Positions 26,320 through 56,179 of a DNA stretch of 64,000 nucleotides are shown here, piece by piece (position 1 is the first letter of the stretch; each line of letters begins with the position of its first letter). The notes beneath the pieces were generated by a model. The model searched no databases. It had not been told where the DNA came from and saw only the letters and a program-made list of their open reading frames with translations. Position numbers and translations under genes: made by a program. Source of the DNA: a virus; the IMG/VR virus record IMGVR_UViG_3300045256_000294, positions 72,953 to 136,952 of that record; one strand, 5' to 3'.

Positions 26320-26470
26320 TCAGAACTCCTGGTAGGTTGCGATTTATTAGCCACTTGAACGTTATACCGGTCTTAGGGATACCATGAACGTTTACGGGAC
26401 ATTCATTGTATTGGGTCCGGCTAGTGCGACCCACCCTATTCACCCCGATATCTGTGGCAAGGGAACCGTC

Positions 26471-27256
26471 ATGGCTCAATATTGCGATTCCCAGAAGCTA
26501 GAGCGGAACTGGTTCCACTGGCTCCTGTCGTCGCGGGTGCCCACCCTCGAACACTATCGGAGTATCGGACTCCTCTGGACCAAGGTCATCGGAGTGGTCA
26601 CCGACGATGAAGGTTCTCCACTCCATCGTCACGGGAAGGTCCTCCCCGATCCCTCTTATCCAGTCCGGGCTCACTGCATCGCTCTCGCGACCCCCATCTA
26701 CTTCAACAGTCACGACGGGCAAGTACAGTCAACCGGTACCGTGTTCCAGGATGGCAAGCCATTGCGTCAGGCTCTGCCGCCAACCGAGATCCTGAACCTC
26801 CTTTCTGACGACTCGTTGCACCGTCTAGGGGACCCCCTGGTGCAACTAACCAAGGTCATCCCCAGCCTACAAAGCAAGGGGTACATCCGCGAGATGTCCA
26901 CGAACACGACTTGGCACGCCATGCTGGAAGATGTTAACCGCATCTGCCACGGCATCGCGATGAAATTCAAGCCGAGGAACGAGGACGAGCACGCGGAACT
27001 GACCAACGAAGCCGTCTACCAAGTGATGAAGAAGCTGGCTGAGTACAAGCTGGTGTACACTCCCGGCCGGGCACCGGTCTTCAACCTGCTGACAACCACC
27101 ATCCACCGTGTTCTCTACTCCGTGATGAACAAGCGGAAGCACCAGCGGGAAGGGCTTGGCCGAATCCTGGCCGAAGCCGAGGCCGGCACCCTTCCGGAAA
27201 CTCATCGCAGCTTGCGAGTGCAGAGCGGTCATCGCCGAACCATTAGAACACGGTGA
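26471..27256 (+). CDS. gp55-like late sigma factor
   Basis: RICHGIAMKF..AELTNEAV..PVFNLLTTTIHR..KRKHQ resembles the T4 gp55 core; carries an N-terminal insertion. Confidence 0.55.
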   Translation: MAQYCDSQKLERNWFHWLLSSRVPTLEHYRSIGLLWTKVIGVVTDDEGSPLHRHGKVLPDPSYPVRAHCIALATPIYFNSHDGQVQSTGTVFQDGKPLRQALPPTEILNLLSDDSLHRLGDPLVQLTKVIPSLQSKGYIREMSTNTTWHAMLEDVNRICHGIAMKFKPRNEDEHAELTNEAVYQVMKKLAEYKLVYTPGRAPVFNLLTTTIHRVLYSVMNKRKHQREGLGRILAEAEAGTLPETHRSLRVQSGHRRTIRTR

Positions 27257-27552
27257 TTCTGGCCTGTCAAGGTCGGTAGCCACCACCGTTCAAACACTTT
27301 CGGCCAATCTTCGCCATGTCGGCATTCCTGGTGTGGTAGGATTAGCCATATCAATAAAACACATCGGCACGTATTTGAAACACATTGTGTATATCGAAAG
27401 GTTCGCCGCCTAAGCTTGTTCAGGCTCTTATCAGGACGTCCCGATCACCATGTCTTGAACGCCAATCGTCGTTTTAGTGTCAATGTATTAAAAGCTAACG
27501 GGTATCGGGAGTACCGTACCAGTGTCGTGCGACTCCACAACTGCAGGTAATC

Positions 27553-27828
27553 ATGACCACGTCCGACCCGCGTTTGCGGAAAGTCAGGACTCCTTTGGCC
27601 AGCCCGGAGGCCCGCAAGTTACTTAAAGACCACAAGGAAGCTATCGTCATCACCGTCAATCCGGACATGAAGGGTGACGGCGAAGTTAACTTGGCGGTCT
27701 ACACCAAGCTGGCCAACGAGGGGGGCGTGTTAGCCACCTACCTCGAACAGGTTTTGAAGAACCTGATGCGGACACGAAATGACAAACAAGCACATCGTAC
27801 GGGCAAAGCCGCCCCAACTGGTGCGTAA
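27553..27828 (+). CDS. Hypothetical protein
   Basis: 91 codons overlapping the next gene. Confidence 0.55.
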   Translation: MTTSDPRLRKVRTPLASPEARKLLKDHKEAIVITVNPDMKGDGEVNLAVYTKLANEGGVLATYLEQVLKNLMRTRNDKQAHRTGKAAPTGA

Positions 27829-29827
27829 GCGGATCCAAGTGGTCTTGCCGAAGAACGTCTCTGTCGTCATCAAACCCAGCCGAGCCCAGGTTGTCAACCT
27901 CAAAGACCTGAGGAAACAGGTCCCACAACCGGCGAAGCCTATACCACAGCCCAAAGTAGAACCGGCCCAACCACAGAATCTGGCAATGCCGGCGGCCGCG
28001 ATCGCCCGACAAAAGCTCATCAAGAGTCGGCGATCGCAACAGGGACGTAAGAAAACCGAAGTCAAGTACGTCAGCCGGGACATCAACCCCGAATCTATCA
28101 ACCGCATCGCATTGCTACGAAACGCGGGGAGGGGGAAGCTGTTGATAATCGTGGGGAACGGCCCATCCATCCTCGAAGCAGACCTGGGCAGGCTCCGCAA
28201 CAACCCCCGCATCCAGATTCTGACCGTCAACAAGCCCGATGCCCGGCTCTGGCCCACAGACTTCTGGGCCTTCTTCGACTCATCCCAATTCCGACGCCAC
28301 GAAGAATTGTGGAACGGCTACAGTGGCCTCATCTTCAACAGCACCGCCATCAAACGGCAGAAGTCCACCAGTATGCAGTTCAGGAATAAGGGTGGCAAAG
28401 GATGGAGTCGTGACCTACTATCTGGAATCCATATCGGCCGCTCGTCCGTCTACGCCAGCATGCAAATCGCCAGTTGGATGAACCACGAGCACGTCTACAT
28501 CTTCGGGTGCCTGCCAGACGGAGAGAAGATTCTAACTGGCAGGGGTATGGTCGCCATCGATGCCCTAGGGCCACTCGACCAAGTTTATACTACTCAAGGT
28601 TTCAAACAGTTGACAGGATACCAAAGACGCTGGTATGAAGGCACGCTGGTGTCGCTCACCACCAGGATGAATAATATTCCTCTAAATGTTACAGAAGAAC
28701 ATCCAATACTGGTTGAACGTCAAGGACAAGAGTCATTTGTGCGGGCTGGGGATATTGGCGTTGGTGATATAGCAATCTATCCGATTGACCAAAGTGTTGA
28801 AGAGGATCGACATAGCACAGACTTCTGGTGGTTAGTGGGTGTCTACGCTGCTCAAGGATATATTAGACCGGTTCGTGACAAGTACAAATACGCAGTGATG
28901 TGCTTGGGCCGTCACGAAGCTAGTTTCCAGCAAAAAGTCGCTAAGACTGCCGCCCTTTGTCTTGGATGCAGGACCACTGGAGACAAGCGCAATCGCTCGA
29001 CCACCGAGCTTGTCATTAATAACGACTATTTCGGGCGATTCGTTGCCGAACATGTAGGCCGTGGTTCTACTACTAAATTTCTTAGCCCCACAGTGATGCG
29101 GCTTCCCCCCGACAAACAAGCCGCGTTTGTCGCAGGGTATTGTGAGGGTGATGGTTCTCTGTTCGTAAAAAATAAACTCGGCAAACATGAGTGCACATTC
29201 TCTACGGCATCGGAAAGTTTGGCCGAGTGTCTCCAGAAGCTTTTACTCAGATTCGGAGTTATATCGTCTCTGGTGAAATCTAAGCGCCCATCCGGATTTG
29301 ATCGCTCCGGTTGTGGTCAATATGGGGTCCGTTATCATGTCCATGTTATAGGGGCGGTTCTTGACAGCCTTGCCAGTCGTTGTGGATGGACAGTTACCAC
29401 GAGCAAGAAAAGACCTTTATTTGATACTGAGATTTTGGATGGGCGGCTTCGCGTTCGGGTCAGGAGTGTGTCCCACACATCGTACGTTGGTTATGTCAAC
29501 AACATCGAGGTGAAAGGGCCGCACACCTATAGTTCTCGTCTCCTCATGACACACAACTGCGACATGAACCCCGACGGTATCAACGGAAAACTCCACTTCT
29601 ACGGGCAGAACCCAGACGTCGATCAAGAACAGCGGAAGCAACGGTTCGCCAAGGAAGCAGTATTCTACGATCAGGCTGCTGACATCATGACCCCGGACGA
29701 GCGGCTGAAATTCACCTTCTGCTCGGCTTACAACAAATGGCCATTCGTCGAGAAGTATGGGCGTCTGGACCATCGCGAAGCAATTGACCACATCTTGAAA
29801 CATGCTGAGCAGCTAAACAAATCCTGA
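27779..29827 (+). CDS. MAF/MptE/GT42-like (GNGPS) protein with a basic N-terminal extension and an intein
   Basis: LIIVGNGPS, ILTVN, SSVYASMQIASWM, VYIFG|CDM..HFY. Confidence 0.7.
   Translation: MTNKHIVRAKPPQLVRKRIQVVLPKNVSVVIKPSRAQVVNLKDLRKQVPQPAKPIPQPKVEPAQPQNLAMPAAAIARQKLIKSRRSQQGRKKTEVKYVSRDINPESINRIALLRNAGRGKLLIIVGNGPSILEADLGRLRNNPRIQILTVNKPDARLWPTDFWAFFDSSQFRRHEELWNGYSGLIFNSTAIKRQKSTSMQFRNKGGKGWSRDLLSGIHIGRSSVYASMQIASWMNHEHVYIFGCLPDGEKILTGRGMVAIDALGPLDQVYTTQGFKQLTGYQRRWYEGTLVSLTTRMNNIPLNVTEEHPILVERQGQESFVRAGDIGVGDIAIYPIDQSVEEDRHSTDFWWLVGVYAAQGYIRPVRDKYKYAVMCLGRHEASFQQKVAKTAALCLGCRTTGDKRNRSTTELVINNDYFGRFVAEHVGRGSTTKFLSPTVMRLPPDKQAAFVAGYCEGDGSLFVKNKLGKHECTFSTASESLAECLQKLLLRFGVISSLVKSKRPSGFDRSGCGQYGVRYHVHVIGAVLDSLASRCGWTVTTSKKRPLFDTEILDGRLRVRVRSVSHTSYVGYVNNIEVKGPHTYSSRLLMTHNCDMNPDGINGKLHFYGQNPDVDQEQRKQRFAKEAVFYDQAADIMTPDERLKFTFCSAYNKWPFVEKYGRLDHREAIDHILKHAEQLNKS
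28508..29557 (+). mobile_element. LAGLIDADG intein (350 aa)
   Basis: CLPDGEKI..VTEEHPI..FVAGYCEGDG..VNNIEVKGPHTYSSRLLMTHN/C; lower GC. Confidence 0.9.
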
Positions 29828-29886
29828 TACGTATTGTAGAATCCGTATCACAACGCGGGGGGCGGCCGGCAGGCCGTATTGTAGCT

Positions 29887-30270
29887 ATGTCGGCAGTCTA
29901 TGTTGGGTCGAGCCTGCATAACGCCCAGCGAGTCCGAGAGGTCCAACAACGGTTTCGTGATGTAGGGATCGACATCACTTACGACTGGACCACCCACGGT
30001 CAGATCTTCGACGAAGCCCTCCTAGCCGAAGTCGGGGAGCTAGAGGAGAAAGGCGTCCGAGACTGCGACGTCTTTTTCATGCTTCATCCCGCCAGAAATG
30101 GCACTCACTATGAGATGGGCCTCGCTAAGGGGCTCAATAAACTCATCGTGATGGTGGCAGAGCAAGAAGTTGAGAAGAAGACCTTCTACTACACCAGCGG
30201 CATCGTCAAGTTCACCAACCTCGATGAAGCTATCGAATTCGTCAAGCTAACCCTGAGAGAAAGACCATGA
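29887..30270 (+). CDS. Nucleoside 2-deoxyribosyltransferase / dNMP N-glycosidase (NDT/Rcl family)
   Basis: VYVGSS, VRDCD and GTHYEMGLAKGLNK with the catalytic Glu. Confidence 0.8.
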   Translation: MSAVYVGSSLHNAQRVREVQQRFRDVGIDITYDWTTHGQIFDEALLAEVGELEEKGVRDCDVFFMLHPARNGTHYEMGLAKGLNKLIVMVAEQEVEKKTFYYTSGIVKFTNLDEAIEFVKLTLRERP

Positions 30271-31013
30271 GTGGCATCTTCAACCGCCTCGAACTGGACG
30301 TGATGCAGGCCAACGAACTCAAGGAGAGCGTCGAGCTAGCCTTCAAGTATAAGTTCCCCGCGATCGTCGTACATCCCGGCCTCGCCTCCGACGCTCTACG
30401 AGCCCGCGGTGCCGTCCGCGGCCAGTTCAAGATCATCACCCCGGTGGATTGGCCCAAGGGCGATAACTTCGGCATCGTGAAATTCCGCGGCCTGTCTCTC
30501 GACGCAGTAGAGACCGACGGGTTCGAGATCATGCTCACCGGCGGAAAGTCGGAGGGCGACACCAGGAACGAGGCCAAGGCCCTCACCGAATTCGTCAAAA
30601 GGCAGATCTCCGACCAAACGGAGGTTCGGTTCGTGCTAGGCAGCTTCATGCGGGACAACGACAACCTCGCTGCCCTGTGCCGGGGGCTCTTACACGTTCG
30701 TACTCCTACCCTAGTTCGCACCGACACCCAACTCAAGCTTCAGGTGTCCAAGGCGAACACCGAAGAGCATAACCGGGTGGTTAATCTCATCCGCAGCATC
30801 GTCCAGGTGCCGGTGAAGGTGGCCGGCAATATCGCCGGGGTGCGGTCGGTGACCGGCTGCCCCGACGCCGCCCGGTACGCGGTGAACCTATTGCAGGCCC
30901 GCACGATCATCAAAGAGTTCCAGCAACAGCCCGGTGGCTTGCGAACTCTCCTAAACAGCCCGCCGCCGGACAACCCGGCCGAAGTGGAGCAAGAGGATGA
31001 TGCTACCGTGTGA
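30267..31013 (+). CDS. DeoC (deoxyribose-phosphate aldolase)-like TIM barrel, catalytically divergent
   Basis: IVVHP, TPVDWPKG, DGFEIML, VRFVL and VKVAGNI follow the DeoC pattern; the FIKTSTG Schiff-base Lys position reads LVRTDT. Confidence 0.65.
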   Translation: MSGIFNRLELDVMQANELKESVELAFKYKFPAIVVHPGLASDALRARGAVRGQFKIITPVDWPKGDNFGIVKFRGLSLDAVETDGFEIMLTGGKSEGDTRNEAKALTEFVKRQISDQTEVRFVLGSFMRDNDNLAALCRGLLHVRTPTLVRTDTQLKLQVSKANTEEHNRVVNLIRSIVQVPVKVAGNIAGVRSVTGCPDAARYAVNLLQARTIIKEFQQQPGGLRTLLNSPPPDNPAEVEQEDDATV

Positions 31014-31320
31014 TGCCTGCGGGAGCGAGCAAGAATTCGACGCGGGCAATGATTATATCTTCTGCACCCGTTGCGGCCACTCGATCCCTGTAACCATGGA
31101 AACGGTACACATCGGTGAGAAGTTAGGGGAGGCCCTCCTGCTACCGCCGCCACAGGTATTAGAAGAAGGAACGGTCGTCATTATTGACCATGAGGATCAC
31201 GTCTGGCACAATGAAATCGCCGTCATCTGTGGTGTTAAACACAAATTCTACCGCCTGGAATTCGGCGGTAGAAAAACCTGGGTCCCCTGCGAGTGGGTGA
31301 AAGAACATGAACCTCATTAG
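30997..31320 (+). CDS. Zn-ribbon plus SH3/KOW-like small protein
   Basis: CDAC..CTRC; GTVVII..YRLEF..WVPCEWV. Confidence 0.6.
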   Translation: MMLPCDACGSEQEFDAGNDYIFCTRCGHSIPVTMETVHIGEKLGEALLLPPPQVLEEGTVVIIDHEDHVWHNEIAVICGVKHKFYRLEFGGRKTWVPCEWVKEHEPH

Positions 31321-31678
31321 CGAAATGGAGGAACTCGGCCAAGACGCCGACCTCCTGACCCGCAGCGACCCCTGGCTCGAACAGGAGCGGGTCCGCCTGT
31401 CCGAAGAGTTAGAGAAAGTTGCCACCCACCTACGGGCCGTGCACGTAGCCCAAAAGATCAAGCGGCAACTCCAGCAAAAAAACCTCGTCGCCGTCCAGCA
31501 ACTCCTACGGGACGCCGACGGTGAGGTCAAGAACATCATCGTCCGGATCATGAACCTACCGGACGCCCTGTCGATGCTCTCGACCTCAGACACCCTGGAC
31601 GAACTGAACGTCGCCGCCCAACTCCACGGGTGGAAAGAGGACGGTTACGATCTGGTGGCCAGCGCAGCCCTCCGATAA
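31307..31678 (+). CDS. Hypothetical helical protein
   Basis: Overlapping operon gene of 123 codons. Confidence 0.65.
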   Translation: MNLISEMEELGQDADLLTRSDPWLEQERVRLSEELEKVATHLRAVHVAQKIKRQLQQKNLVAVQQLLRDADGEVKNIIVRIMNLPDALSMLSTSDTLDELNVAAQLHGWKEDGYDLVASAALR

Positions 31679-31703
31679 GGTCTATACCCACCCACAGTCC
31701 AAT

Positions 31704-31727
31704 CGGGCCAGCCGGAAGGCTGGCCCG
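31704..31727 (+). promoter_or_regulatory. Perfect 10-bp hairpin with a GGAA loop just upstream of ATG 31736
   Basis: CGGGCCAGCC-GGAA-GGCTGGCCCG. Confidence 0.5.
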
Positions 31728-31735
31728 GCCCATTT

Positions 31736-32011
31736 ATGGAGCCAATAGTCTATCGTGTCATCGAGGCTACACCCAACGATAAGGGCATTTCTCTGCTCCT
31801 TAGTCAGGATGGGATCGAAGACCCAGAGGCTGACATCGTATTGGTGTGGCGGGATGACCAAGACGTCGAATGGGCACACTGGAAAGAACAAGACCACAGA
31901 GTCGATGCTCTATCCTGGCGATTCCCGCTAGACTCGTCAGACGACGAAACGCACGTGTTGGTCAGTAACAACAAACTCTGGAGCAACAATAATGCAACCG
32001 CGGAAATTTAA
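31736..32011 (+). CDS. Hypothetical acidic protein
   Basis: 91 codons overlapping the purZ start. Confidence 0.6.
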   Translation: MEPIVYRVIEATPNDKGISLLLSQDGIEDPEADIVLVWRDDQDVEWAHWKEQDHRVDALSWRFPLDSSDDETHVLVSNNKLWSNNNATAEI

Positions 32012-35000
32012 CATCGTGACGGACGGGGCCTGGGGCTCGTGCGGCAAGGGCCTCATCACCACCGCCCTCGCCTGGAAGCACCGGCCACAAATCATCAGCA
32101 CCACCAACATGGCGAATGCCGGACACTGCCAGACGGCTGACACCTACGTTATTACCGATCGTGGGCTGGAGCGTCTAGGGTCTGTCGTCCTCAATAGGAC
32201 CGCCTCCCAAACCGTGAACATGGACGGGAACTTTGAGATGGTGTCGCATCACCACTATGATGGCGTACGGCACATCAACGAGATCGCCCTTCAAAACGGA
32301 GTGAAGCTCCGGTGCACCGATGCCCATCGCTATTACGTCTGGGACATCCAGAACGCGGCGTTCAGATGGGTGGCCAGTAACAACCTCAACGCCGACCACC
32401 ACATCTTTCTCTTCCCCAAGGAGGTTGCCTTCCCGAACAACAAACTCCTACCAGACCGGTGGTCGATGGAGCCTCTTCCCAACCGCACCATCATCACCCT
32501 ACCGCCGGACTCGACCAAGACGGACGTGCGATTCGCCGAATACTTAGGGCTGCTGGTGGGTGATGGGTATTACGCCGGTCTGCAGAAGATCTCAATCGCC
32601 TTCCACAGCGATCGACTCGACGTGGCTGAGACGGTGGCCGACCTGTATCGCGACATGGGTATTACGGCTGTCGAACTGCGGCGAGTACCGGGGAAGAGAT
32701 ACTCTACCCTTACCACCCGCCAGACCTCCGGCTTGAATGAACTGTTCAAGATCGTGGGCCTTGATAGGGCCACCAAGTCTGCCAAGAGGACGCCATCTGG
32801 CGTCCTACGGTCCAACAAGTTGGTCATTGCCGCCTATCTCCGTGGTCTGTTCGATGCGGACGGCTCGGTTAAGAAGGACCGCGTGCAGCTCACCAATTGC
32901 TCACGGGTCGTTGTGGAAGACGCCCAGCAGATGCTCTATGTTCTTGGTATCCATTCATGTCTGAGCGTCTATCACTGTGACCGCCCCATCAAATCAGGCG
33001 TCCGGCTCCCACAATTCATCCTGTCAGTCTCCGGAAAGGCAGACCTGATGGCCTTTCACCGCACGGTCGGTTTCCTGTCACGGGTCAAGACGGAGCGTCT
33101 CCTGGGACTTGTCGGCCAGACTGAGGAGCAAGGTCTAGTCCTACCCCTGTCACTGCAGCTGCGGCAAAAACTGCGACAATCTGGGCTGGCGGGCCGAACC
33201 AACACCCGCACCGCTTCGGTGGTGGAAAAACTCGCTAACAGCACCGATCCGGAAATTGTGCGTCTCGTTGATCTGTGCCGAGACTATCACCCCGTACGCA
33301 TCAAGTCGATCCGCTTACACTGCGATCAAGCTGAGGTGTTCGACATTACCGTTCCCGGTACTCACAGCTATTTGGCCAACGGGTGTGTGTCGCACAACAC
33401 CGCCGTCTTCACCGACGGCCGGACGTTCGTGGCTAAGGCCCTCCCCTCCGCCACCATCCTCACCAAGTGGCTCACCGACTACCAGCCGCAGATCGTCGTC
33501 GGCCCCACCGCCGCCTTCGACCTCGACCAGATGATGAAAGAGATCCATGAGTGCGGGGTTAACCACTCCCTGACCATCCACCCGCGGGCCGGCGTCATCA
33601 CCGAAGCCCACAAGCTGGCCGAGAGCGGCAACGGCGAAGGCTCAACCAAGCACATCGCCTCCACGATGCAGGGCTGCGGCGCCTTCCTAGCCGACAAGAT
33701 CCTCCGCAAGAAGGGACTCCGGCTCGCCCGCGATTACCCCGAACTGAACAGCTTTATGGCGGACTACCTGCCGCGGAAGCTAACCATGCTGGGAGCCGAG
33801 GCCGCTGCCCTCGAAGGACTCAGCCTGCCGGAGATGCTCTACCGGCTAATGACCCGGCACGGCTACACCATTCTGCACGAAGGGAGCCAGGGCTTCTCCC
33901 TCGACATCAATCACGGCTCCCACTACCCCCAATGTCACCACATCGATACTCTGGTTCGCGTCCGTACCGGCGATGGTGTTGTGGAAACGATCCGGTTGCA
34001 AAATGTGGATGTCTCCAGACACACCGAGATCGAGGACATCGGTGGATGGGTGCGTTTGCACAAATCGTGGGAGAATCTCGACCCGGAGCCGATGCTTGCC
34101 ATCGTCGCCGGACAGAATTTGCTTATGGTGACCGCCGGGCACCCGACCATCATTGAGCGTGATGGGGTACGGGTGGAGATTAGGGCCGACGCGGTTCGCC
34201 CCGGTGATCGCGTCTATACACCCACCCCCAACCGTCCTGTCGCTAACAAAGCCCTTGGACGCTCGCTTGCGTACGCGGTTGGCTATTTTCTGGGTGACGG
34301 ATGGATCAGCGGAGAAATGCGGCCGGCGGCTCACCGTCCTACAGCCGGCCAGAAGAAAACCACAGAACTCGCCCGCTACCGAGCACGCAAACAAGACATG
34401 GTCGTCGAAACGCCGACACACCGGATGGCAGCAGCCCGCAAGACTCAGATGTTGGGTGTGATCTTCTCGTCGCAGGATTTTTACCGCCTACCTGGGCATC
34501 TTGACCGTCTCAGTCTGACGCATCACATGCGGGCGACCAAGAGCAAAGCGTTCCGGCTCAACGTCTGGTCATCCGATTTCGCACGTCAACTGGACTCGAT
34601 GGGCATCAAATCCGAACTCGCCCCTAACAAACGGTTGATGCCCGACTATCTGGACTACGACGACGTGACCTTAGCGATGATCTTGGCCGGTTATATTGAC
34701 TCTGACGGGACCGTGACCAAGACCGGCCGCGTCGTCTTCGAGGTTACGTCGTTGTGCCTGTGCCAGCAGTGGCAGCGCTGGTTGCATTCGTTGGGCATTA
34801 AGTGCTCGATCCGTCCCCGAAAGAAGTATGGAACACACTATAGCACACACACCACGACCGACCACTGGTTGATGTCGATCGTTTTCCACAAGAACCAGAC
34901 CGAACACCCGGTATACCAGACTCTGCTTGCCGAATCCGCCAAGGCCGCAATTCGCCTGCGGCCTCAGGCTCGCTGCTGGGATCGTGACGCAACCCATGTC

Positions 35001-35630
35001 CGTTCGGCTTTCTCCGGCGGTCTGTCGAAGGTTACGAGAATCGTCCGACTCGGTTTGCGGCGGGCTTGGGACGTCACTACCGACACCGGAACTTTCCTGG
35101 CCGGCGGCATCTTAGCCCACAACTGTACCAGCCGTGGGACAACCGGCATGCAGAACATGGCCGACATGGGGATCAGCCACTTCGAACTCGGCGACGTCTA
35201 CCTCGTCATCCGCCCATACCCGATCCGGGTGGGCAACGTGATCGAGAACGGCCAACAGGTCGGCTACTCCGGCGACTGCTACGACGGCCAGGAGGAGATT
35301 ACCTGGGAGCAGGTCGCCAAGGAGTCTGGCATGCCGGATGACGTGGCAGCGAGCTTGCTCAAAAAGGAACTGACGACGGTGACCAAGCGACTCCGCCGGG
35401 TATTCACCTTCTCTGACCGGCAGCTTCGGGAAGCGGCCCTCATTAACGGGGCCACCAAGATCGCCCTCAACTTCGCCAACTACATCGACTACTCGGTCGC
35501 CGGCAAAAACCAGTACGATGAACTCACCCCCAAGGTGAAGGACTTCATCGCCCGTGTTGAGGACGTGACCAAGCTGCCGGTCACCGTGGTGGGGACCGGG
35601 CCACAGGTGGACCACGTGGTACTCCTCTGA
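31992..35630 (+). CDS. purZ: PurZ-like N6-succino-2-amino-adenylate synthetase (PurA paralog), about 391 aa after splicing of two inteins
   Basis: GAWGSCGKG (Ser where PurA has the catalytic Asp), NMANAGH|T, IASTMQGCG, EGSQGFSL, YPQ|CTSR, RPYPIRVG, ELTTVTKRLRRVF and LNFANY (in place of TKLD). Confidence 0.8.
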   Translation: MQPRKFNIVTDGAWGSCGKGLITTALAWKHRPQIISTTNMANAGHCQTADTYVITDRGLERLGSVVLNRTASQTVNMDGNFEMVSHHHYDGVRHINEIALQNGVKLRCTDAHRYYVWDIQNAAFRWVASNNLNADHHIFLFPKEVAFPNNKLLPDRWSMEPLPNRTIITLPPDSTKTDVRFAEYLGLLVGDGYYAGLQKISIAFHSDRLDVAETVADLYRDMGITAVELRRVPGKRYSTLTTRQTSGLNELFKIVGLDRATKSAKRTPSGVLRSNKLVIAAYLRGLFDADGSVKKDRVQLTNCSRVVVEDAQQMLYVLGIHSCLSVYHCDRPIKSGVRLPQFILSVSGKADLMAFHRTVGFLSRVKTERLLGLVGQTEEQGLVLPLSLQLRQKLRQSGLAGRTNTRTASVVEKLANSTDPEIVRLVDLCRDYHPVRIKSIRLHCDQAEVFDITVPGTHSYLANGCVSHNTAVFTDGRTFVAKALPSATILTKWLTDYQPQIVVGPTAAFDLDQMMKEIHECGVNHSLTIHPRAGVITEAHKLAESGNGEGSTKHIASTMQGCGAFLADKILRKKGLRLARDYPELNSFMADYLPRKLTMLGAEAAALEGLSLPEMLYRLMTRHGYTILHEGSQGFSLDINHGSHYPQCHHIDTLVRVRTGDGVVETIRLQNVDVSRHTEIEDIGGWVRLHKSWENLDPEPMLAIVAGQNLLMVTAGHPTIIERDGVRVEIRADAVRPGDRVYTPTPNRPVANKALGRSLAYAVGYFLGDGWISGEMRPAAHRPTAGQKKTTELARYRARKQDMVVETPTHRMAAARKTQMLGVIFSSQDFYRLPGHLDRLSLTHHMRATKSKAFRLNVWSSDFARQLDSMGIKSELAPNKRLMPDYLDYDDVTLAMILAGYIDSDGTVTKTGRVVFEVTSLCLCQQWQRWLHSLGIKCSIRPRKKYGTHYSTHTTTDHWLMSIVFHKNQTEHPVYQTLLAESAKAAIRLRPQARCWDRDATHVRSAFSGGLSKVTRIVRLGLRRAWDVTTDTGTFLAGGILAHNCTSRGTTGMQNMADMGISHFELGDVYLVIRPYPIRVGNVIENGQQVGYSGDCYDGQEEITWEQVAKESGMPDDVAASLLKKELTTVTKRLRRVFTFSDRQLREAALINGATKIALNFANYIDYSVAGKNQYDELTPKVKDFIARVEDVTKLPVTVVGTGPQVDHVVLL
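32127..33398 (+). mobile_element. LAGLIDADG intein 1 in purZ (424 aa)
   Basis: CQTADTYV..LGLLVGDG..LRGLFDADG..VFDITVPGTHSYLANGCVSHN/T. Confidence 0.93.
33933..35123 (+). mobile_element. LAGLIDADG intein 2 in purZ (397 aa)
   Basis: CHHIDTLV..VTAGHP..VGYFLGDG..LAGYIDSDG..AWDVTTDTGTFLAGGILAHN/C. Confidence 0.93.
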
Positions 35631-35854
35631 TGACCTTCTACAGCGACAATGCAACCTTCGCTTCGAACGCAGCCCAGGCCCTGGTGAACCGGGGGCTGGG
35701 CTTCACCTTTTACAAATCTCCCGGCAATGGACACGGTGAATTCGCATTTCACGTTATGGATGATAAGGCCATAGACTTGATCCGCTATATGGGTGACCAT
35801 TGGGCGGTGTCCCTCTACGAGGTCCATGATAAGGACCAGCCCAACAGGGACTGA
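35630..35854 (+). CDS. Hypothetical protein
   Basis: TGATG coupling to purZ. Confidence 0.6.
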   Translation: MTFYSDNATFASNAAQALVNRGLGFTFYKSPGNGHGEFAFHVMDDKAIDLIRYMGDHWAVSLYEVHDKDQPNRD

Positions 35855-35884
35855 CTTCGGTAGCTATGGAAACCCGGAGCTACC

Positions 35885-36682
35885 ATGCTACTCGATAAAC
35901 TGAAAATTGCAGCCTACCTGGATGAAGCCGGCGAGGATATCCTGTCCGCCTGCTCAGTTCTGGCGGAACACAAGTTCAATTACGTCGTCCTCCGCCACGC
36001 CTGGAGTGGCAATATCCTCGACGTCAACGATCAGACCTGTGCCAAACTCCGCAAGACTCTACAGGATCACAACCTGAGCGTGGTCGCTCTGGTGACTGAC
36101 CTGGGTAAAGTTGAGACGCCACAACTGATGCGGACGCCCAAGGAGAAGATCGAGCGTCTGTTCAATCTGGCCACCTACTTCCAGGCCAGTATGGTGCGGG
36201 TGCACTGTGGGGTCAAGTCGCGTAACCAGGACGAGAAGGCGATTGAGTCCTGGATGCAGATGATCACCGAGAAGTGTCTGATCTCGACGACAATTCCGCT
36301 ATATGAAGTAGTGGATGAGAGCGTCTACCGCGAGCCGCCAGAGGTCGCCAAATTACTATCGGCGAACCGACGCTGGAAGCTGCTGTACGACCCCGTTCAG
36401 CTTATCATCAAGCAGAACCAAAACCCATTTTTGCGGTATTGGACGTTGTTGAAGGCGTTCATAGCCGCTGTGGATCTTCGTGATTTCAAAATTGGTCACG
36501 GCTACAAGCCGGTTGGTCTTGGCGATGCCCGGATGAAGCTAACGGTTGACGAGGGGCTGGGCGGCACGTATAAGGGCTGGTATTTCTTCGAGCCCTCTCT
36601 TGGCCGTCGCTACGCTTCCGCGGTAACTAAGGCGGATACTTTCAAGCTCGCTCTAGGAGCACTTGAAAATATCATGGCTTGA
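35885..36682 (+). CDS. Xylose-isomerase/AP-endonuclease-2-like TIM barrel with divergent metal ligands
   Basis: AYLDEAG, LYDP, VDLRD, VGLGD and FFEPSL follow the sugar-phosphate isomerase pattern, with His ligands replaced. Confidence 0.65.
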   Translation: MLLDKLKIAAYLDEAGEDILSACSVLAEHKFNYVVLRHAWSGNILDVNDQTCAKLRKTLQDHNLSVVALVTDLGKVETPQLMRTPKEKIERLFNLATYFQASMVRVHCGVKSRNQDEKAIESWMQMITEKCLISTTIPLYEVVDESVYREPPEVAKLLSANRRWKLLYDPVQLIIKQNQNPFLRYWTLLKAFIAAVDLRDFKIGHGYKPVGLGDARMKLTVDEGLGGTYKGWYFFEPSLGRRYASAVTKADTFKLALGALENIMA

Positions 36683-36720
36683 ACCCAGGGCAAAGTTTCG
36701 AGTAACACAAAGGCAAAACC

Positions 36721-36933
36721 ATGGTTGCGAACATCAACGAAGCGGTCGAAGCGATCAAGCGGGTGGGCGGGACGAACGCCCGCATTGTCCCTATGCCTGG
36801 GCAGGATGTGAACGGACGCCAACAGGTCGAAATCCGCGAGGGCACCTCATGGTATCCTGTGGTGACCGGGGTCAGCAGGAAGATGGCCGAAGACATCATC
36901 GCACAGGCTGTCAACAAGGTGATTCTTGGGTAA
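36721..36933 (+). CDS. Hypothetical small protein
   Basis: 70 codons; TAATG coupling to the next gene. Confidence 0.65.
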   Translation: MVANINEAVEAIKRVGGTNARIVPMPGQDVNGRQQVEIREGTSWYPVVTGVSRKMAEDIIAQAVNKVILG

Positions 36934-37379
36934 TGATGCCTGAGCAGCGGAAGATAAAGAGTGTCACCGAACTCGCCAAATATCGCGTGGGCGATACGGT
37001 GTGGTGGGTTATTCTACGTCCGCTGCAGGCCGGCCTCACTCGTGGCCTGCCGGAACACGACGAGTGGATGAAAAAACACCACCCCAAAGTCCTCTATGAA
37101 TGGGGGCCTGGGAAAATCGTGTGGGGAAAGGCACTACTGCCGAAACTACAACACGTCGATTTCGGCAACATTGTACCGCTCCTCACCAGCAAAATCCTTG
37201 TTGACCAGTTCCCGATCTGCGACATTCTCCGCAGTCGTGACACCGGAGAGTTCTTCTACTCCAATGCCGATGACGAGTGGATGCCAGAATCGTACTTGCT
37301 AACCACCAAGATCGCCGCGGACCGTGAACGGACCCGCATCCTCCGGTTGTTTCAAAAGTGGATCGACAACAACAAATGA
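36933..37379 (+). CDS. Hypothetical protein
   Basis: Coupled ATG; YRVGDTVWWV. Confidence 0.65.
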   Translation: MMPEQRKIKSVTELAKYRVGDTVWWVILRPLQAGLTRGLPEHDEWMKKHHPKVLYEWGPGKIVWGKALLPKLQHVDFGNIVPLLTSKILVDQFPICDILRSRDTGEFFYSNADDEWMPESYLLTTKIAADRERTRILRLFQKWIDNNK

Positions 37380-37741
37380 TCTGGTCATCGGATCAAGGCG
37401 ATCCACCATACTACACCCCTGTCGCCAACGGTGTAATCGAGCAATTGCTCGGAAACAACTACTTCGTATCTGCCTATTGGGACCAAACCAGGGCGGAGGG
37501 GATGCAGGTAGTAATCGACATCTCCTTACCACACGGCATCTTCTCAGAATTCCCCGGAATGACCATTAGCCGCGTTGTCTGTGGTCCACCACCCACAGCC
37601 ATTACCGCAATTGGTCGGCACCGGGAAGCTGGGCTATACCTTGATGCCGTCGACCCTGAATCGTTCCAGAAGTTGAATCGTTTTCTCAAAGCTGCTGGTC
37701 GTCACGATCCTTCTGGTTCCGCATCCAAGTCGCCTGCATGA
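37376..37741 (+). CDS. Hypothetical protein, 'LADP'-like
   Basis: ATGA overlap; C-terminal LYLDAVDPESFQKLNRFL. Confidence 0.55.
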   Translation: MIWSSDQGDPPYYTPVANGVIEQLLGNNYFVSAYWDQTRAEGMQVVIDISLPHGIFSEFPGMTISRVVCGPPPTAITAIGRHREAGLYLDAVDPESFQKLNRFLKAAGRHDPSGSASKSPA

Positions 37742-38513
37742 TCGGGGTATCAACCCCAAGCCGACGAGCACCGATCATCATATTGGCGAGGTCCTTCGGC
37801 AGACACTTCCCGCCAAACCCGAACTTCCCGTCGTGCCCCGGCACCTGAGTGTGCGATTGGGTGATCCGACCGTCCGCCAGTATCGCCTCCCGGCAGTGCT
37901 CCCAATCGAGTTTACCGGCGTCGGCGATTTTGCGAAGTTCATTGAACAGACCCACCTTCACGGCCCAGATCACGTTCATCGACAGCTTCACGTACTCGGT
38001 TTCTGCTGCCGACATCACATACACCGGCACTCCGGCGAACCGCTCCTTGCACATCGCTTCGAAATCGCGAGCCGCGTTCATCGACTTCTGGTCCGGAGCC
38101 CAGCCGATGAGATTGCGGGACGGAGTGTACGAGTCGATGAGGCTGAGTCGTTCCGTGAGAAATTCAGGGTGGTGGATGATGGTCAGGTCTGGGTAGATTT
38201 TGGTCATCTCGCCGGTGAAGCCCATCGGAATGGTGGATTTGATGACCACCACCCCACATTTGGGGAGTTCGGCGAGTTTCTTGAAGACGCTCTCTATGAT
38301 GTCGGTGTCGCACTCATATGATCCCGGCCGGCGGTTGGTTGGTACTGCGATGAATACATAATCGCAGGCGGCGGTTTCTTCGAGGGAGTGCACGCTGCGG
38401 TTGGGGTCGGCGTCGTGAATCTTGATGTCGGCCACGTATTCAGACCAGACCTTGGCGTGAGCTTTCCCTACTACTCCGTGGCCAATGACCCCGAACGTTG
38501 GTTTTTTGGTCAT
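37686..38513 (-). CDS. Short UDP-glucose/GDP-mannose dehydrogenase family protein lacking the C-terminal domain
   Basis: GVIGHGVVG, IAVPT, IKST, PEFL and GFGGKCLPKD. Confidence 0.85.
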   Translation of the reverse strand: MTKKPTFGVIGHGVVGKAHAKVWSEYVADIKIHDADPNRSVHSLEETAACDYVFIAVPTNRRPGSYECDTDIIESVFKKLAELPKCGVVVIKSTIPMGFTGEMTKIYPDLTIIHHPEFLTERLSLIDSYTPSRNLIGWAPDQKSMNAARDFEAMCKERFAGVPVYVMSAAETEYVKLSMNVIWAVKVGLFNELRKIADAGKLDWEHCREAILADGRITQSHTQVPGHDGKFGFGGKCLPKDLANMMIGARRLGVDTPIMQATWMRNQKDRDDQQL

Positions 38514-51019: not shown

Positions 51020-51423
51020 TCGTCAAGGCCCCGGTCAGTCTCGGCGAGCTAATAGACAAAATCAGCATCCTGAAAATCAAGCAAGCTCGGATCAAGGACC
51101 CAACCAAGCTCGCCAACGTGAATTTCGAGCATGACGCCCTCTACGCCCTGTTCAACGACATCTACGAGAAGCTTCCAGCCGGCCAGCAACCAGCCCTAAT
51201 TGATCTATCGGTCAAGCTCAAGAACATCAACGAGAAAATCTGGGATATCGAGGACGGCATCCGCGAGTGTGAAAAGAACAAGGACTTCGGTCCTAACTTC
51301 ATCGTGTTTGCCCGCGGTGTCTACCACAACAACGATGAACGGGCCGCCCTCAAGCGAAAGATCAACGACCTAGTTGGTTCCCAAATCGTCGAAGAGAAAT
51401 CCTACACGGACTACAAAGGATGA
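51016..51423 (+). CDS. DUF6165-like protein
   Basis: PVSLGELIDKISILKIK..WDIED..ARGVY..NDERAALKRKIN..EEKSY. Confidence 0.75.
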   Translation: MIVKAPVSLGELIDKISILKIKQARIKDPTKLANVNFEHDALYALFNDIYEKLPAGQQPALIDLSVKLKNINEKIWDIEDGIRECEKNKDFGPNFIVFARGVYHNNDERAALKRKINDLVGSQIVEEKSYTDYKG

Positions 51424-52139
51424 AGAAACTCGTGGTTATGGTGTCGGTGTATAATGCCGGGGATTTCATCGAGAATCGACTCGATAATCTCCAAAAAAGC
51501 ACTATGGCCAAAGACACCGAAGTCTGGGTTGTCAACGCCAACAGCCCAGACCCACGCGACCACGCCATCCCACACAAGTTCGACGTCAAGTACGTGAAAC
51601 TCCCTGAGAGGGTAGGGGTATACGCGGCTTGGAACTACATTATCAAGAATTCAAAGAGCGTCTACCTCACCAACGCCAACGCCGACGACCTCATCGCTCC
51701 CAACGGCTACGAGACACTAACCAGGAACCTCGATCAAGTCAAGGCTTGCGACTTCAGTTACCCATCTTGGTTCACAACTGACACCCCCAACCTCACCTGG
51801 GAAGATGTGAGAAAAGGGAAAGCAGCTGCTTGTGACAAGTCCGGCAAACCCGGCCAGTATAAAGGGAACCTGGATGACGGCGGTGTCGGCCATTTCCCCA
51901 TATGGCGGCGAGCACTCCACGACAAGTTGGGGCTGTTTGATGAAGAGTTCAAAGCTCTGGGCGATGCCGATTGGTGGGCACGCTGCTGGTGGGTCGGCAA
52001 AGCCGATTTCCACTGGCATAAAGAGTACCTAGCCTGCTACCTATTCCGCAACGGCGAAAACCTCTGGCATCGTGAGGTCAACGAAGTCGAATGGCAACGC
52101 TACCACACAAAGGTCGCCAGCTACCGAAAGCCGGTCTAA
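51420..52139 (+). CDS. GT2 glycosyltransferase
   Basis: VSVYNA..VVNANS..YAAWN..NANADD..GLFDEEF..GDADWW. Confidence 0.85.
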   Translation: MKKLVVMVSVYNAGDFIENRLDNLQKSTMAKDTEVWVVNANSPDPRDHAIPHKFDVKYVKLPERVGVYAAWNYIIKNSKSVYLTNANADDLIAPNGYETLTRNLDQVKACDFSYPSWFTTDTPNLTWEDVRKGKAAACDKSGKPGQYKGNLDDGGVGHFPIWRRALHDKLGLFDEEFKALGDADWWARCWWVGKADFHWHKEYLACYLFRNGENLWHREVNEVEWQRYHTKVASYRKPV

Positions 52140-53125
52140 ACATCAAGAAGCCAATCGTCCAGCAACAGCGAATAACCAACCCCTGCCGGCCCCATACGTC
52201 CGGCGGAGCACAAGTGACTATCCCACATTACAACGGCGACGAAGACTACACCAAAATCGCCCTGATCCAGCCAGCATCCTGGGGCGACAACATCAACAGC
52301 ACCTTGATGTTCAAACCGCTCAAAGACCACTATGGCTCCATGGTCCTCGACGTCTACACCGCCGAAAGCTACGCCTCCGCCTTCTTCAACAACCCCTACA
52401 TCAACCGACTCATCGAGTTCCCGGCCCCCACCAAAGAGAAAGCCCTCGATCTCCTCAACGTAATCCCACCCCTGGTCCAGGGAAGAGGCTACGACAAAAT
52501 CTTCTGTCCACACCCCATGATTAACGGGGACAAATGGACCAGTATCCGCCACGGCGAGCTAGGCACCAACCTCATCAACGCCTGGGTACGGGCACTTGAA
52601 GAGACAGACATCGCGTTCGCCCTACCGCTAGAGACGATTTTAGTTCTGACCCCGAACGAAGTGGCGAACGTCGACAACTTCTGCTCGCGGGTGAACATGA
52701 ACTCCCGCAACATTCTCATGGAAGTCGAGGGACTTTCGGGGCAGACCTACTGGAACCACCACTGGACTGAACGAGTAGGAAAATACCTCCTACGTGGCGA
52801 TACCAACCTGTTCCTGTCGCGTCGAGCATCAGGTTCGGACGTGGCTGCTCTGGAACGGCACGCCCCCGGCCGCATCCACTTCGTGGGCGGGCTCAGTATT
52901 CGGGAATGTGCTGAACTGTTTAACCGCTGCGACATCTTCTTCAGCGTCTCGTCCGGCCTGTCAAACGCTTGCAACACCAACTGGTGCAAGAAGGACGGCA
53001 AGTGGATCGAGACGGTCAATTCAGACGCCGTGTCCAGTGCTCCAATTCGGCGAGAGGGCAAGATCTTCTGGACCGATAACAACCTCGACCACTTCATGGA
53101 TATGCTGGCGGAGCACGGGATCTGA
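52091..53125 (+). CDS. GT9 (heptosyltransferase-like) glycosyltransferase; start uncertain
   Basis: SWGDNI..NNPYI..LSIRECAELF..FSVSSG. Confidence 0.75.
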   Translation: MATLPHKGRQLPKAGLNIKKPIVQQQRITNPCRPHTSGGAQVTIPHYNGDEDYTKIALIQPASWGDNINSTLMFKPLKDHYGSMVLDVYTAESYASAFFNNPYINRLIEFPAPTKEKALDLLNVIPPLVQGRGYDKIFCPHPMINGDKWTSIRHGELGTNLINAWVRALEETDIAFALPLETILVLTPNEVANVDNFCSRVNMNSRNILMEVEGLSGQTYWNHHWTERVGKYLLRGDTNLFLSRRASGSDVAALERHAPGRIHFVGGLSIRECAELFNRCDIFFSVSSGLSNACNTNWCKKDGKWIETVNSDAVSSAPIRREGKIFWTDNNLDHFMDMLAEHGI

Positions 53126-53931
53126 TGTTGATACACCACCTAGACCAAACCATCAAAGTCATCCCGCGGTTCGGGCTGGGTAACCGCCTTATGGCTATAG
53201 GCTCCGCTCTCCGACTGCAGAAATTGGGCTACTTCAGAACAGTCCGCGTTCAGTGGGAAGCCAGTGGTGATCTAAATGCTAACTTCTCAGACTTACTGGA
53301 AATCGACAATATCGTCCAGTCTTCCAAAGACCCGGACGACATCTACGTCGGCTTCCCCAATAAGCACAGAATCCCAAACCACGACCGGGTAACAGTCGAG
53401 GCGTGCGACATCTTCACAGTTGAGGATGACCCAACCGACCCGAACATCATCAACAAGGAAATCGCCGCTGTCTTCAACCAAATTCGCTTCAAGCCATATC
53501 TCTACGCACTCGCTGACAAGTATGATGTAGCTGGAAGAACTGGACTTCACTGTCGCCGCAGCGACTACCCATTCTCGCGTCCACCGATCAACACAGGTAT
53601 CATCCCAAAATATCATGAGGTGCTAGACCACGGGTTCGCCGCCAACATTAAAACCACATACCCAGGCCCCTACTTCCTGGCCAGTGATTCAGCCAAGACT
53701 GACGCTTATTTCATCGAACAGTTTCCTGGGATCATAACAGTCCCTAAGAAGCACTATCCAGAATGGTCAGTAAGGCCGCTAGAGACAGTGATCGAGGGCG
53801 TGGTCGATATGATTCTGTTGTCACGCTGCCGGATCTTGGTTGGAGACAGCCCAAGCACCTTCAGCACCGTTGCAGCCTGGCTGGGCGGTATCGAAAAAAT
53901 GATCTGGCAACGGCCATGGATAACACTATGA
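53125..53931 (+). CDS. Fucosyltransferase-like (NodZ/GT23/GT11-type) protein
   Basis: GLGNRL, GLHCRRSD, FLASDS, DMILLSRC and STFS. Confidence 0.75.
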   Translation: MLIHHLDQTIKVIPRFGLGNRLMAIGSALRLQKLGYFRTVRVQWEASGDLNANFSDLLEIDNIVQSSKDPDDIYVGFPNKHRIPNHDRVTVEACDIFTVEDDPTDPNIINKEIAAVFNQIRFKPYLYALADKYDVAGRTGLHCRRSDYPFSRPPINTGIIPKYHEVLDHGFAANIKTTYPGPYFLASDSAKTDAYFIEQFPGIITVPKKHYPEWSVRPLETVIEGVVDMILLSRCRILVGDSPSTFSTVAAWLGGIEKMIWQRPWITL

Positions 53932-56082: not shown

Positions 56083-56179
56083 CAAGTCCGGACTGTACGA
56101 GTTGGCCTTCGTACATAAGGGCGAGGAACGCACCGCTACTCTTGTCAACCTGGAACCATGCAACAATACCATGACCTAG
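55928..56179 (+). CDS. Hypothetical protein
   Basis: 83 codons overlapping the thyA start. Confidence 0.6.

Follow-up and report, generated by a model that had tools for sequence, protein, structure and literature searches.

Introduction

The phages known so far to carry 2-aminoadenine (Z) are small sipho- and podoviruses that use either DatZ and MazZ or DutZ and DmtZ, and their polymerases are of PolA or PrimPol type. The first of these solutions, in which PurZ is combined with DatZ, with MazZ or DUF550 and with DpoZ, is the system of the small Z phages phiVC8/VP2, SH-Ab 15497 and S-2L. Here we describe a candidate Z-DNA locus of a different kind, found in a stretch of viral DNA of 64,000 nucleotides (the window) that forms the second half, positions 72,953 to 136,952, of the 136,952-base linear IMG/VR record IMGVR_UViG_3300045256_000294 (G000 below). 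At 29887-36682 of the window, five genes in the same orientation encode, in this order, a protein of the NDT superfamily, a TIM barrel with the fold of DERA (DeoC), a small conserved open reading frame (ORF), a PurZ-type synthase and an isomerase-like barrel. That this cassette serves a Z genome is the reading that we favour, with moderate confidence.

A second solution is that of the PurZ0 actinophages Wayne and Ghobes, for which Poubanne et al. (NAR 2026, PMC12884076) report that DutZ turns dATP into dAMP and that DmtZ, an enzyme of the NDT family, hydrolyses dAMP and can pass the deoxyribose-5-phosphate on to the Z base; DmtZ and DutZ are described there as standing in for DatZ and MazZ. 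Proteins of this superfamily have also been connected with Z in the environment: in Yang et al. (bioRxiv 10.1101/2025.10.22.683976), NDT-M2 and NDT domains are enriched on dZ contigs of aquatic viromes, and a role in dA removal is proposed. The preliminary description of the window had presented removal of dA by the NDT-family protein as a possible new route to a Z genome; the cleavage and transfer that DmtZ performs on dAMP and the presence of NDT on dZ contigs are precedents, and its central idea is therefore not new in kind. What does appear to be new is the setting in a jumbo phage that encodes DnaE, the combination of a PurZ-type synthase with an NDT partner, and the two inteins; the NDT family without a specific tie to DmtZ, the DERA-fold partner with its shifted lysine and the isomerase-like barrel also appear to be new. 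Neither the DERA-fold nor the isomerase-like partner is mentioned in the text of the two papers, where the only aldolase is E. coli DeoC, used as an assay reagent. The published work that we found holds no report of PurZ with jumbo or huge phages or with an aldolase partner; the supplements of the two papers could differ.

With the classical PurZ system the window shares the Ser in place of Asp13, the residues F295/Y298 and T262, and membership of a clade that excludes both PurZ0 and PurA. However, DatZ follows purZ directly in 32 of 33 classical loci, most of which also have DUF550 and PolA, whereas the window cassette has none of these, nor MazG; it lies, moreover, in a genome of about 360 kb with its own DnaE, its purZ contains two inteins, and the product scores below the cut-off of the NCBIfam PurZ model. 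The system of PurZ0, DutZ and DmtZ resembles the window in having no DatZ or MazZ, in combining NDT-superfamily and dUTPase-family enzymes and in removing dA at the monophosphate level (presumptively so in the window), but the window has a PurZ-type synthase and an NDT of another family, which is coupled to a DERA-fold and an isomerase-like barrel. Proteins of PF05014 type are tied statistically to predicted dZ phage contigs in Yang et al.; there, however, they are said to act on nucleosides, to be encoded away from the synthase and to occur together with DatZ and PolA. By that description the NDT-superfamily protein of the window stands apart from them, since its gene precedes purZ by two genes and is not found with DatZ.

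A PurZ-type synthase interrupted by two inteins

The gene at the centre of the cassette is an ORF of 1212 aa on the + strand (31992-35630), in which Pfam recognises Adenylsucc_synt (1.1e-20), LAGLIDADG_3 (8.3e-28, in two stretches), Intein_splicing (1.8e-13) and Hom_end (3.5e-7), and NCBIfam recognises intein_Cterm (2.6e-11). The preliminary description had taken this ORF for a PurA paralog with two inteins, and the domains found and the junctions located bear it out. Extein 1 (31992-32126, +) contains the P-loop GSCGKG and runs up to NAGH, where it is interrupted by intein 1 (32127-33398, +; 424 aa, LAGLIDADG), which starts with Cys1, ends in HN and is followed by Thr at +1, so that its site lies between NAGH and T. 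Extein 2 (33399-33932, +) is separated from extein 3 (35124-35630, +), which carries PIRVG and the ATP-type motif LNFANY, by intein 2 (33933-35123, +; 397 aa, LAGLIDADG/Hom_end), again with Cys1 and an HN end but with Cys at +1 and inserted between YPQ and C. Both inserts have Cys1, a block B TxxH, HN followed by Cys, Ser or Thr, and LAGLIDADG, from which splicing is predicted. In silico, cutting at Cys1 and at the HN-T and HN-C junctions gives a product of 391 aa, and the removal of intein 1 rebuilds the motif NAGHT.

Inteins occur in 14 of the 148 representatives examined from the exhaustive search described below, and always at the same two sites; the intein 1 site is filled in four of these 14 and the intein 2 site in most of them, and one representative has both. 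Orthologs of about 390 aa without inteins are abundant. A word-indexed search for homologs of the synthase gave 897 matches at E <= 0.001 among 1312 candidates; in the best 120 of the 897, identity to extein 3 ranges over 62-93%, and many of these come from contigs of 300-439 kb. Searching the 50%-identity representatives exhaustively yielded 2550 matches at E <= 0.001, of which 282 were at E <= 1e-30. The gene immediately upstream of the cassette (27779-29827, +, 682 aa) contains a LAGLIDADG intein too (Pfam LAGLIDADG_3, 1.8e-13); its ortholog in G001, a relative of 354,091 bases rated 98% complete and examined whole, is without the intein and is recovered by tblastn as two segments on either side of a gap.

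The spliced extein was aligned with 12 close orthologs, 128 intein-less representatives, 10 named phage proteins (VP2, SH-Ab 15497, Bm1, PMBT28, Archimedes, Preamble, Galactica, Goodman, vB_BpsS-140 and MaF61) and two PurA with Asp13 (n = 153). Ser stands at the position of PurA Asp13, a residue reported as 99% conserved in the PurA clade in PMC12884076, in 149 of the 153 rows, that of the window included. The Ser of the window's GAWGSCGKG aligns to the Asp of E. coli GDEGKG, and its LNFANY overlies TKLD; the motifs quoted in the preliminary description (GS(C)GKG, NMANAGHT, YPIRV and LNFANY) are all present and align as it had claimed. At the P-loop and the TKLD position respectively, the window has GSCGKG and LNFANY, validated-type PurZ has GSTGKG and LNF(A/C)NY, PurZ0-type proteins have GSEAKG and (T/S)M.D, and E. 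coli PurA has GDEGKG and TKLD. According to the preprint (bioRxiv 10.1101/2025.10.22.683976), 12 positions separate PurZ from PurA, and F295 and Y298 are read as contacts to the adenine ring of ATP. The window has the PurZ residue at seven of these 12 positions (S14, P233, Y244, W252, T262, F295 and Y298) and E. coli PurA at none, the two sharing only a Trp at position 12. F295, Y298 and T262 (phiVC8 numbering) are identical in the window and in all 14 close relatives, where E. coli has K, V and G.

In trees rooted on the Asp13 PurA, which contained no archaeal PurA and no S-2L PurZ, PurZ0 splits off first, followed by a clade that unites validated-type PurZ with the window group. Support for this clade is 99 with FastTree (144 rows), 98 in a quick IQ-TREE run (46 rows) and 100/90 in a careful one whose bootstrap had not fully settled. 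Within it, next to VP2, SH-Ab 15497, Bm1 and PMBT28, the window group forms a deep branch of its own (100/99), while the PurZ0 group is a separate clade (100/100) whose motifs the window does not have. PHROG 1211 ('2-aminooxy adenylosuccinate synthetase') matches the ortholog P0001 at 3e-61. Motifs and trees, the latter built from the in silico spliced protein with PurA, PurZ and PurZ0, support the view taken in the preliminary description that the predicted spliced extein is of PurZ type rather than PurA or PurZ0, and no grouping with canonical PurA was seen.

Canonical PurA was rejected as an identification on the missing Asp13, the missing TKLD and scores below cut-off on NF003295 and on TIGR00184 (89-136 bits for the latter, against 395.55), and PurZ0 on its differing motifs ((T/S)M.D and GSEAKG are both missing) and its separate clade. 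A sentence in PMC12884076 has PurZ0 and PurZ preferring ATP and GTP 'respectively', which is opposite to the preprint's reading of F295/Y298 and to the motifs; PurZ0 keeps the guanine-type Asp, contrary to the ATP preference in that sentence, and we follow the preprint and the motifs.

The partner proteins

The first gene of the cassette (29887-30270, +, 127 aa) encodes an NDT-superfamily protein that is a probable (d)NMP N-glycosidase or transferase. Its PF05014 match (E 2.2e-6, 28.2 bits) falls slightly short of the cut-off of 28.8; its AlphaFold2 model, with a predicted local distance difference test (pLDDT) score of 94.8, has the NDT fold, and the top Foldseek matches in the PDB are NDT, BcmB, MilB and DNPH1. 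A profile of 25 members finds BcmB (1.5e-6), BlsM (5e-6) and MilB (3e-5) ahead of true transferases. With MilB, BcmB, BlsM and DNPH1/Rcl the window protein shares the fold and the nucleophile motif P-x-x-x-G-T-H-x-E-x-G, over which the profile matches BcmB, BlsM and MilB, but its identity to these enzymes is 16-20%, and MilB, BcmB and BlsM act on CMP or hmCMP in antibiotic pathways, DNPH1 on dNMPs. Y5, E53 and E76, the catalytic Tyr and Glu among them, are invariant in all 25 sequences. The fold and the invariant catalytic residues fit the NDT-family enzyme that the preliminary description had placed at the start of the co-oriented run. The gene is neither fused nor adjacent to Dut, and its stop overlaps the start of the DERA-fold gene in the sequence ATGA.

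The product of that second gene (30267-31013, +, 248 aa) is predicted to be a DERA-fold, DeoC-like TIM barrel. Its AlphaFold2 model (pLDDT 91.1) finds only deoxyribose-phosphate aldolases among the top Foldseek matches (best E 7.8e-13, template-modelling (TM) score 0.70-0.80, 14-20% identity), and in the ESM Atlas it reaches TM 0.72-0.79 to DeoC clusters. For the register of residues we used the known motif positions of E. coli DeoC, namely D16, D102, K137, K167 (IKTSTG, the Schiff base) and K201. Their counterparts are D11, E87, R121, R151 (VRTDTQ) and K184, in a register that rests on the strand order of the model and on a weak local hhalign of the helix after strand 6 (E 0.3); global hhalign and MAFFT --add of the family to E. 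coli DeoC gave no usable alignment. The barrel is like DERA in its TIM fold and its strand order and in keeping residues equivalent to D16, D102 (as Glu) and K201, but differs in having Arg at both K137 and K167. R121, R151 and K184 occur together in 53 of 54 members of the family, the remaining one, from locus L093, having S, K and V. The lysine at K184 is compatible in the model with a catalytic lysine relocated from strand 6 to strand 7. The preliminary description had a DeoC-like protein handling deoxyribose-5-phosphate, of which the fold is upheld by the model; plain DERA cleavage of this substrate is doubtful, however, because Arg stands at the position of the Schiff-base Lys in those 53 members.

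Between the DERA-fold gene and purZ lies a conserved small ORF (31307-31678, +, 123 aa), with only a spurious weak Pfam match. It has a 61.6% identical ortholog in the same place in G001 and is found in 16 of the 79 loci described below, always in this position. The run ends with a gene that the preliminary description had left out (35885-36682, +, 265 aa), which encodes a xylose-isomerase-like TIM barrel of the sugar-phosphate isomerase/epimerase family. PF01261 (AP_endonuc_2) matches it at E 2.9e-6 and 27.6 bits against a cut-off of 31.1, which the orthologs in relatives G003 and G005 pass, and the ESM Atlas gives a feature score of 0.96 and TM 0.86 to PF01261 clusters. Such a barrel lies directly downstream of purZ in 17 of the 79 loci.

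Conservation of the cassette and exclusion of DatZ

CheckV rates the 136,952-base contig as about 38% complete, from which a true genome of about 360 kb follows; with so small a part of the genome in hand, the absence of DatZ and MazZ had to be tested in complete relatives. G001 runs collinear to the window, and all five genes are there, free of inteins, at identities of 40% for the NDT, 66% for the DERA-fold protein, 62% for the small ORF, 74% for PurZ and 50% for the TIM barrel. For a wider comparison we used 79 distinct IMG/VR loci with a PurZ relative, obtained by a pattern scan and searched with our own profiles over 8 kb on each side; near-identical copies are included (for example L047, L048, L071 and L078), so the counts are not independent. 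The DERA-fold gene occurs within 8 kb in 23 of the 79, and in 20 of these 23 an NDT-superfamily gene lies directly upstream of it, 17 times of the short type and three times of a different, long type of about 210 aa, whose Pfam matches to Nuc_deoxyri_tr2 and NDT stay under the cut-offs. The complete run of five genes, in unchanged order, was found at 14 of the 79 loci. The synteny of NDT, deoC-like gene and purZ, a check raised in the preliminary description, is kept in relatives.

Whole-record searches covered 28 records, all with PurZ: 14 with the NDT and DERA-fold pair, 10 large ones without it and four classical phages. Five of the 14 pair-bearing records are rated 98-100% complete, many records in the set being fragments. 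The DERA-fold gene is beside purZ in 12 of the 14. The other two are complete phages of 370-395 kb in which a pair with the long NDT is distant from purZ: L126 (G014:190000-198000), about 180 kb away in that genome, and L127 (G013:206000-212000). A dCTP-deaminase/dUTPase-like gene neighbours the pair in both G013 and G014. An RNase T-like exonuclease and ThyX adjoin it as well in G014, and the distance from it to a NUDIX gene is about 2.5 kb in G013.

Homology, active-site motifs, folds and gene order are supported directly by these comparisons, and so is mutual exclusion with DatZ. Neither DatZ nor MazZ had been visible in the window, and the wider searches agree. On the whole 136,952-base contig there is no match to HD, HD_3, YfbR-like, MazG or DUF550, and in G001 none to HD, MazG, DUF550 or YfbR-like; a DatZ profile run against six-frame translations of G000 and G001 finds nothing at E up to 1, and DatZ, MazG and DUF550 were not found in the cassette relatives rated 98-100% complete. 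An HD_3 match in G001 (12.4 bits, E 0.023) and HD matches in G011 and G014 were set aside as not being DatZ, the DatZ profile recognising none of them. For DUF550 the absence from jumbo records is weak evidence, PF04447 giving a single weak match in the four classical phages, and PF18909 (DUF5664) is uninformative, with no match even in classical Z phages whose protein is picked up by a local jackhmmer search with SH-Ab 15497 gp40; that search, the better control, detects DUF550/DUF5664 at 22 of the 79 loci, all of them classical.

DatZ is present at 32 of the 79 loci and PolA at 26, and no DatZ locus (0/32) has an NDT or DERA-fold gene. Among 33 small classical-type loci (L084-L116), the only one that does not have DatZ, L093, has the NDT and DERA-fold pair instead. 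On this 38-kb contig (L093:6335-9203) a long NDT, a DERA-fold gene and an ORF of 122 aa precede a PurZ relative of 30% identity, without DatZ. In whole records DatZ-like proteins occur in none of the 14 with the pair, in five of the 10 large ones without it, where they score E 1e-19 to 1e-23 on the DatZ profile, and, by PF01966, in all four classical phages (Fisher p = 0.0006, a value that ignores relatedness). The five large records, G015, G017, G019, G020 and G024 (L121-L125; 257-436 kb), have a PurZ relative without the cassette and all but G017 also have a PurB-like lyase; phages of jumbo size with the classical DatZ solution thus seem to exist as well. A PurB-like lyase was found in six of 29 records in all, and not in G000, G001 or G002. 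dUTPase runs opposite to DatZ, being present in 11 of the 14 records with the pair, two of the 10 large ones without it and none of the four classical phages.

The window's own dUTPase domain, which the preliminary description did not mention, lies outside the cassette at 56985-58115 (+), in a single ORF of 376 aa that combines DHFR_1 (1.2e-41, residues 4-145) with dUTPase (7.4e-19, residues 245-350). It is 30-45% identical to the dUTPase parts of PurZ0-phage proteins and is possibly an accessory dNTP diphosphatase. Its ortholog in G001 is an ORF of 184 aa with dUTPase only, and in complete relatives another dUTPase, which scores higher, is encoded at a different place. The polymerase, unlike that of the known Z phages, is of DnaE type: both G000 and G001 have DNA_pol3_alpha domains divided among separate frames, in the former at G000:C1:60075-63551 (- strand, before the window). 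The contig holds a PolA-like match of 23 bits, and no PolA neighbours the window purZ.

Interpretation and alternatives

In proposing how the cassette might work, we infer all the substrates, the direction in which the sugar-phosphate steps run, and that virion DNA contains Z. The PurZ-type succino-aminodeoxyadenylate synthase at the centre of the cassette would first have to excise the two LAGLIDADG inteins that sit in its catalytic motifs. Once spliced, it would most likely condense dGMP and aspartate, with ATP, to dSMP, which adenylosuccinate lyase and kinases would turn into dZTP, and 2-aminoadenine would then replace adenine in the phage DNA. Most likely, a dUTPase-like or NUDIX enzyme from another part of the genome would first cleave dATP to dAMP. 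The NDT-family protein would then remove adenine from the dAMP, the substrate we presume for it, or swap adenine for the Z base as DmtZ does, and the DERA-fold and isomerase-like barrels would act on the deoxyribose-5-phosphate released. The NDT and its DERA-fold partner would in this way take over DatZ's task of excluding adenine.

Several observations weigh against this proposal, and they are best considered with the alternatives that they suggest. The synthase might be a diverged adenylosuccinate synthetase, or one for another purine nucleotide (a ribonucleotide, or some other 6-substituted purine), in a phage whose DNA has ordinary adenine. The curated PurZ model NF038379 (cut-off 300) would allow this: the ORF with its inteins reaches 168.2 bits, and P0001, P0015 and P0021, orthologs without inteins, reach 194-208 bits, where the control, Bm1 PurZ, passes at 320 bits; the archaeal-type PurA model NF003295 (cut-off 368) gives about the same, 169-212 bits. 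The best solved sequence relative is P. horikoshii PurA (4.6e-22), ahead of phiVC8 PurZ (4.6e-19). Yet the protein has Ser for Asp13, an F/Y pair in place of TKLD, and T262, W252, Y244 and P233 in the PurZ state, and it is nested with validated-type PurZ away from the Asp13 PurA at support of 98-100, although the backbone within the PurZ clade is unresolved and the window's sub-branch contains no assayed member among the references used. No DatZ, MazZ, DUF550 or PolA-type DpoZ stands alongside it, but DatZ-like and, in some cases, PurB-like genes are present in large relatives that have no cassette, as expected of a Z pathway. Taking these together, we consider a synthase outside Z metabolism unlikely.

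The PurZ may, on the other hand, be genuine, and the NDT, DERA-fold and TIM-barrel genes a module for general deoxynucleotide salvage or catabolism and no device for excluding adenine. It would break down, for example, dCMP, dUMP or modified dNMPs released when host DNA is degraded, would recycle the sugar phosphate and would be adjacent to purZ only through the clustering of nucleotide-metabolism genes. The best solved sequence relatives of the NDT-like protein are the CMP and hmCMP N-glycosidases BcmB, BlsM and MilB. The dUTPase, in its thymidylate context with ThyA and DHFR, may be an ordinary Dut, and the distant pairs of G013 and G014, the latter among exonuclease, ThyX and dCTP-deaminase-like genes, are in keeping with salvage. 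The exclusion pattern is also not clean, many records being fragmentary: 24 of the 79 loci have within 8 kb neither DatZ nor an NDT or DERA-fold gene, both DatZ and the pair are missing from G021 (100% complete), and for G002-G014 the absence of DatZ means only that a PF01966 screen at E 0.01 found none. A salvage module would nevertheless have to account for a pair that always came together with PurZ in the same record (PurZ-bearing records being the only ones sampled) and never with DatZ (0 of 14 whole records, against nine of the 14 others), for L093, where the pair takes the place of DatZ one for one beside purZ, and for the recruitment of two NDT lineages to the same DERA-fold partner; DmtZ is moreover a published precedent for action on dAMP in the same superfamily. 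Salvage seems to us possible but improbable. A still less probable alternative, to which we give little credence, is that the NDT is a DmtZ-like transferase that makes dZMP from dAMP and free Z base, the module being a second supply of dZMP and not a sink for dAMP, with the DERA-fold and isomerase-like barrels running synthetically or as non-catalytic partners. The dual activity reported for DmtZ is in keeping with this, and a DERA-fold protein without the usual catalytic lysine would suit some function besides aldol cleavage. The missing lysine also counts against the reading that we favour, and so does the lack of any Pfam, NCBIfam or PHROG match to this protein, whose family profile finds no DERA among PDB sequences at E up to 10. 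However, no source of free Z base is known besides the breakdown of dZMP or of Z-DNA, and DatZ exclusion is explained no better by a transferase than by a dAMP sink. Nor was a specific kinship of the NDT to DmtZ found: BLAST against the Preamble DmtZ-DutZ protein gave no match, hhalign gave a weak one (E 0.0066, probability 5.7%) with YD..WT and PAR motifs in common, and the two proteins fall in different PHROGs; this counts against the reading that we favour, too.

The Z-genome reading can be stated in a fuller form, which we put forward tentatively and with a good deal less assurance: a widespread lineage of phages of 350-440 kb, replicating with a split DnaE of its own, would have fully Z-substituted DNA and a so far undescribed, DatZ-independent, three-enzyme dAMP route with a relocated-lysine DERA fold, in which the NDT strips adenine and the DERA-fold and isomerase-like barrels irreversibly remove or reroute deoxyribose-5-phosphate. 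If the cassette works as read, 2-aminoadenine genomes would reach into a large and environmentally common group of jumbo phages (897 synthase homologs, on contigs of up to 439 kb), and Z-DNA would be copied by a DnaE-type polymerase, the first of the C family known to do so. There would then be a third way of excluding adenine, through a previously unnoticed NDT and DERA-fold pair that replaces DatZ one for one, and enzymes of use in the in vitro production of Z-DNA might come from the pair. For enzyme evolution, the DERA fold with its apparently relocated lysine and the intein-gated PurZ are of interest in their own right.

Other features of the locus and its surroundings

All real genes at 26384-37741 are on the + strand, and a scan for promoters and terminators over 29000-37500 gave nothing above chance level. 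Three further small ORFs within the cassette, 30997-31320, 31736-32011 and 35630-35854 (all +), are missing from G001, in which the genes on either side almost touch, and may be lineage-specific inserts or not genes; the first of them has weak zinc-ribbon matches. The whole stretch 29887-36682 is present in four public runs labelled as hot-spring or microbial-mat metagenomes and stored as contigs, which are possible sources of the assembly and so neither independent support nor proof of habitat.

Downstream of the cassette, a UDP-glucose/GDP-mannose dehydrogenase-like gene (37686-38513, -) was without a detected ortholog in G001. Further along, ThyA (56158-56988, +; Pfam Thymidylat_synt 5.2e-109) directly precedes the DHFR-dUTPase ORF. 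On either side of these two genes, at 51420-55585 (+) and 58078-59355 (-), lie genes for GT2 and GT1 glycosyltransferases, an S-adenosylmethionine-dependent methyltransferase and a sulfatase-family protein, which are conserved in G001.

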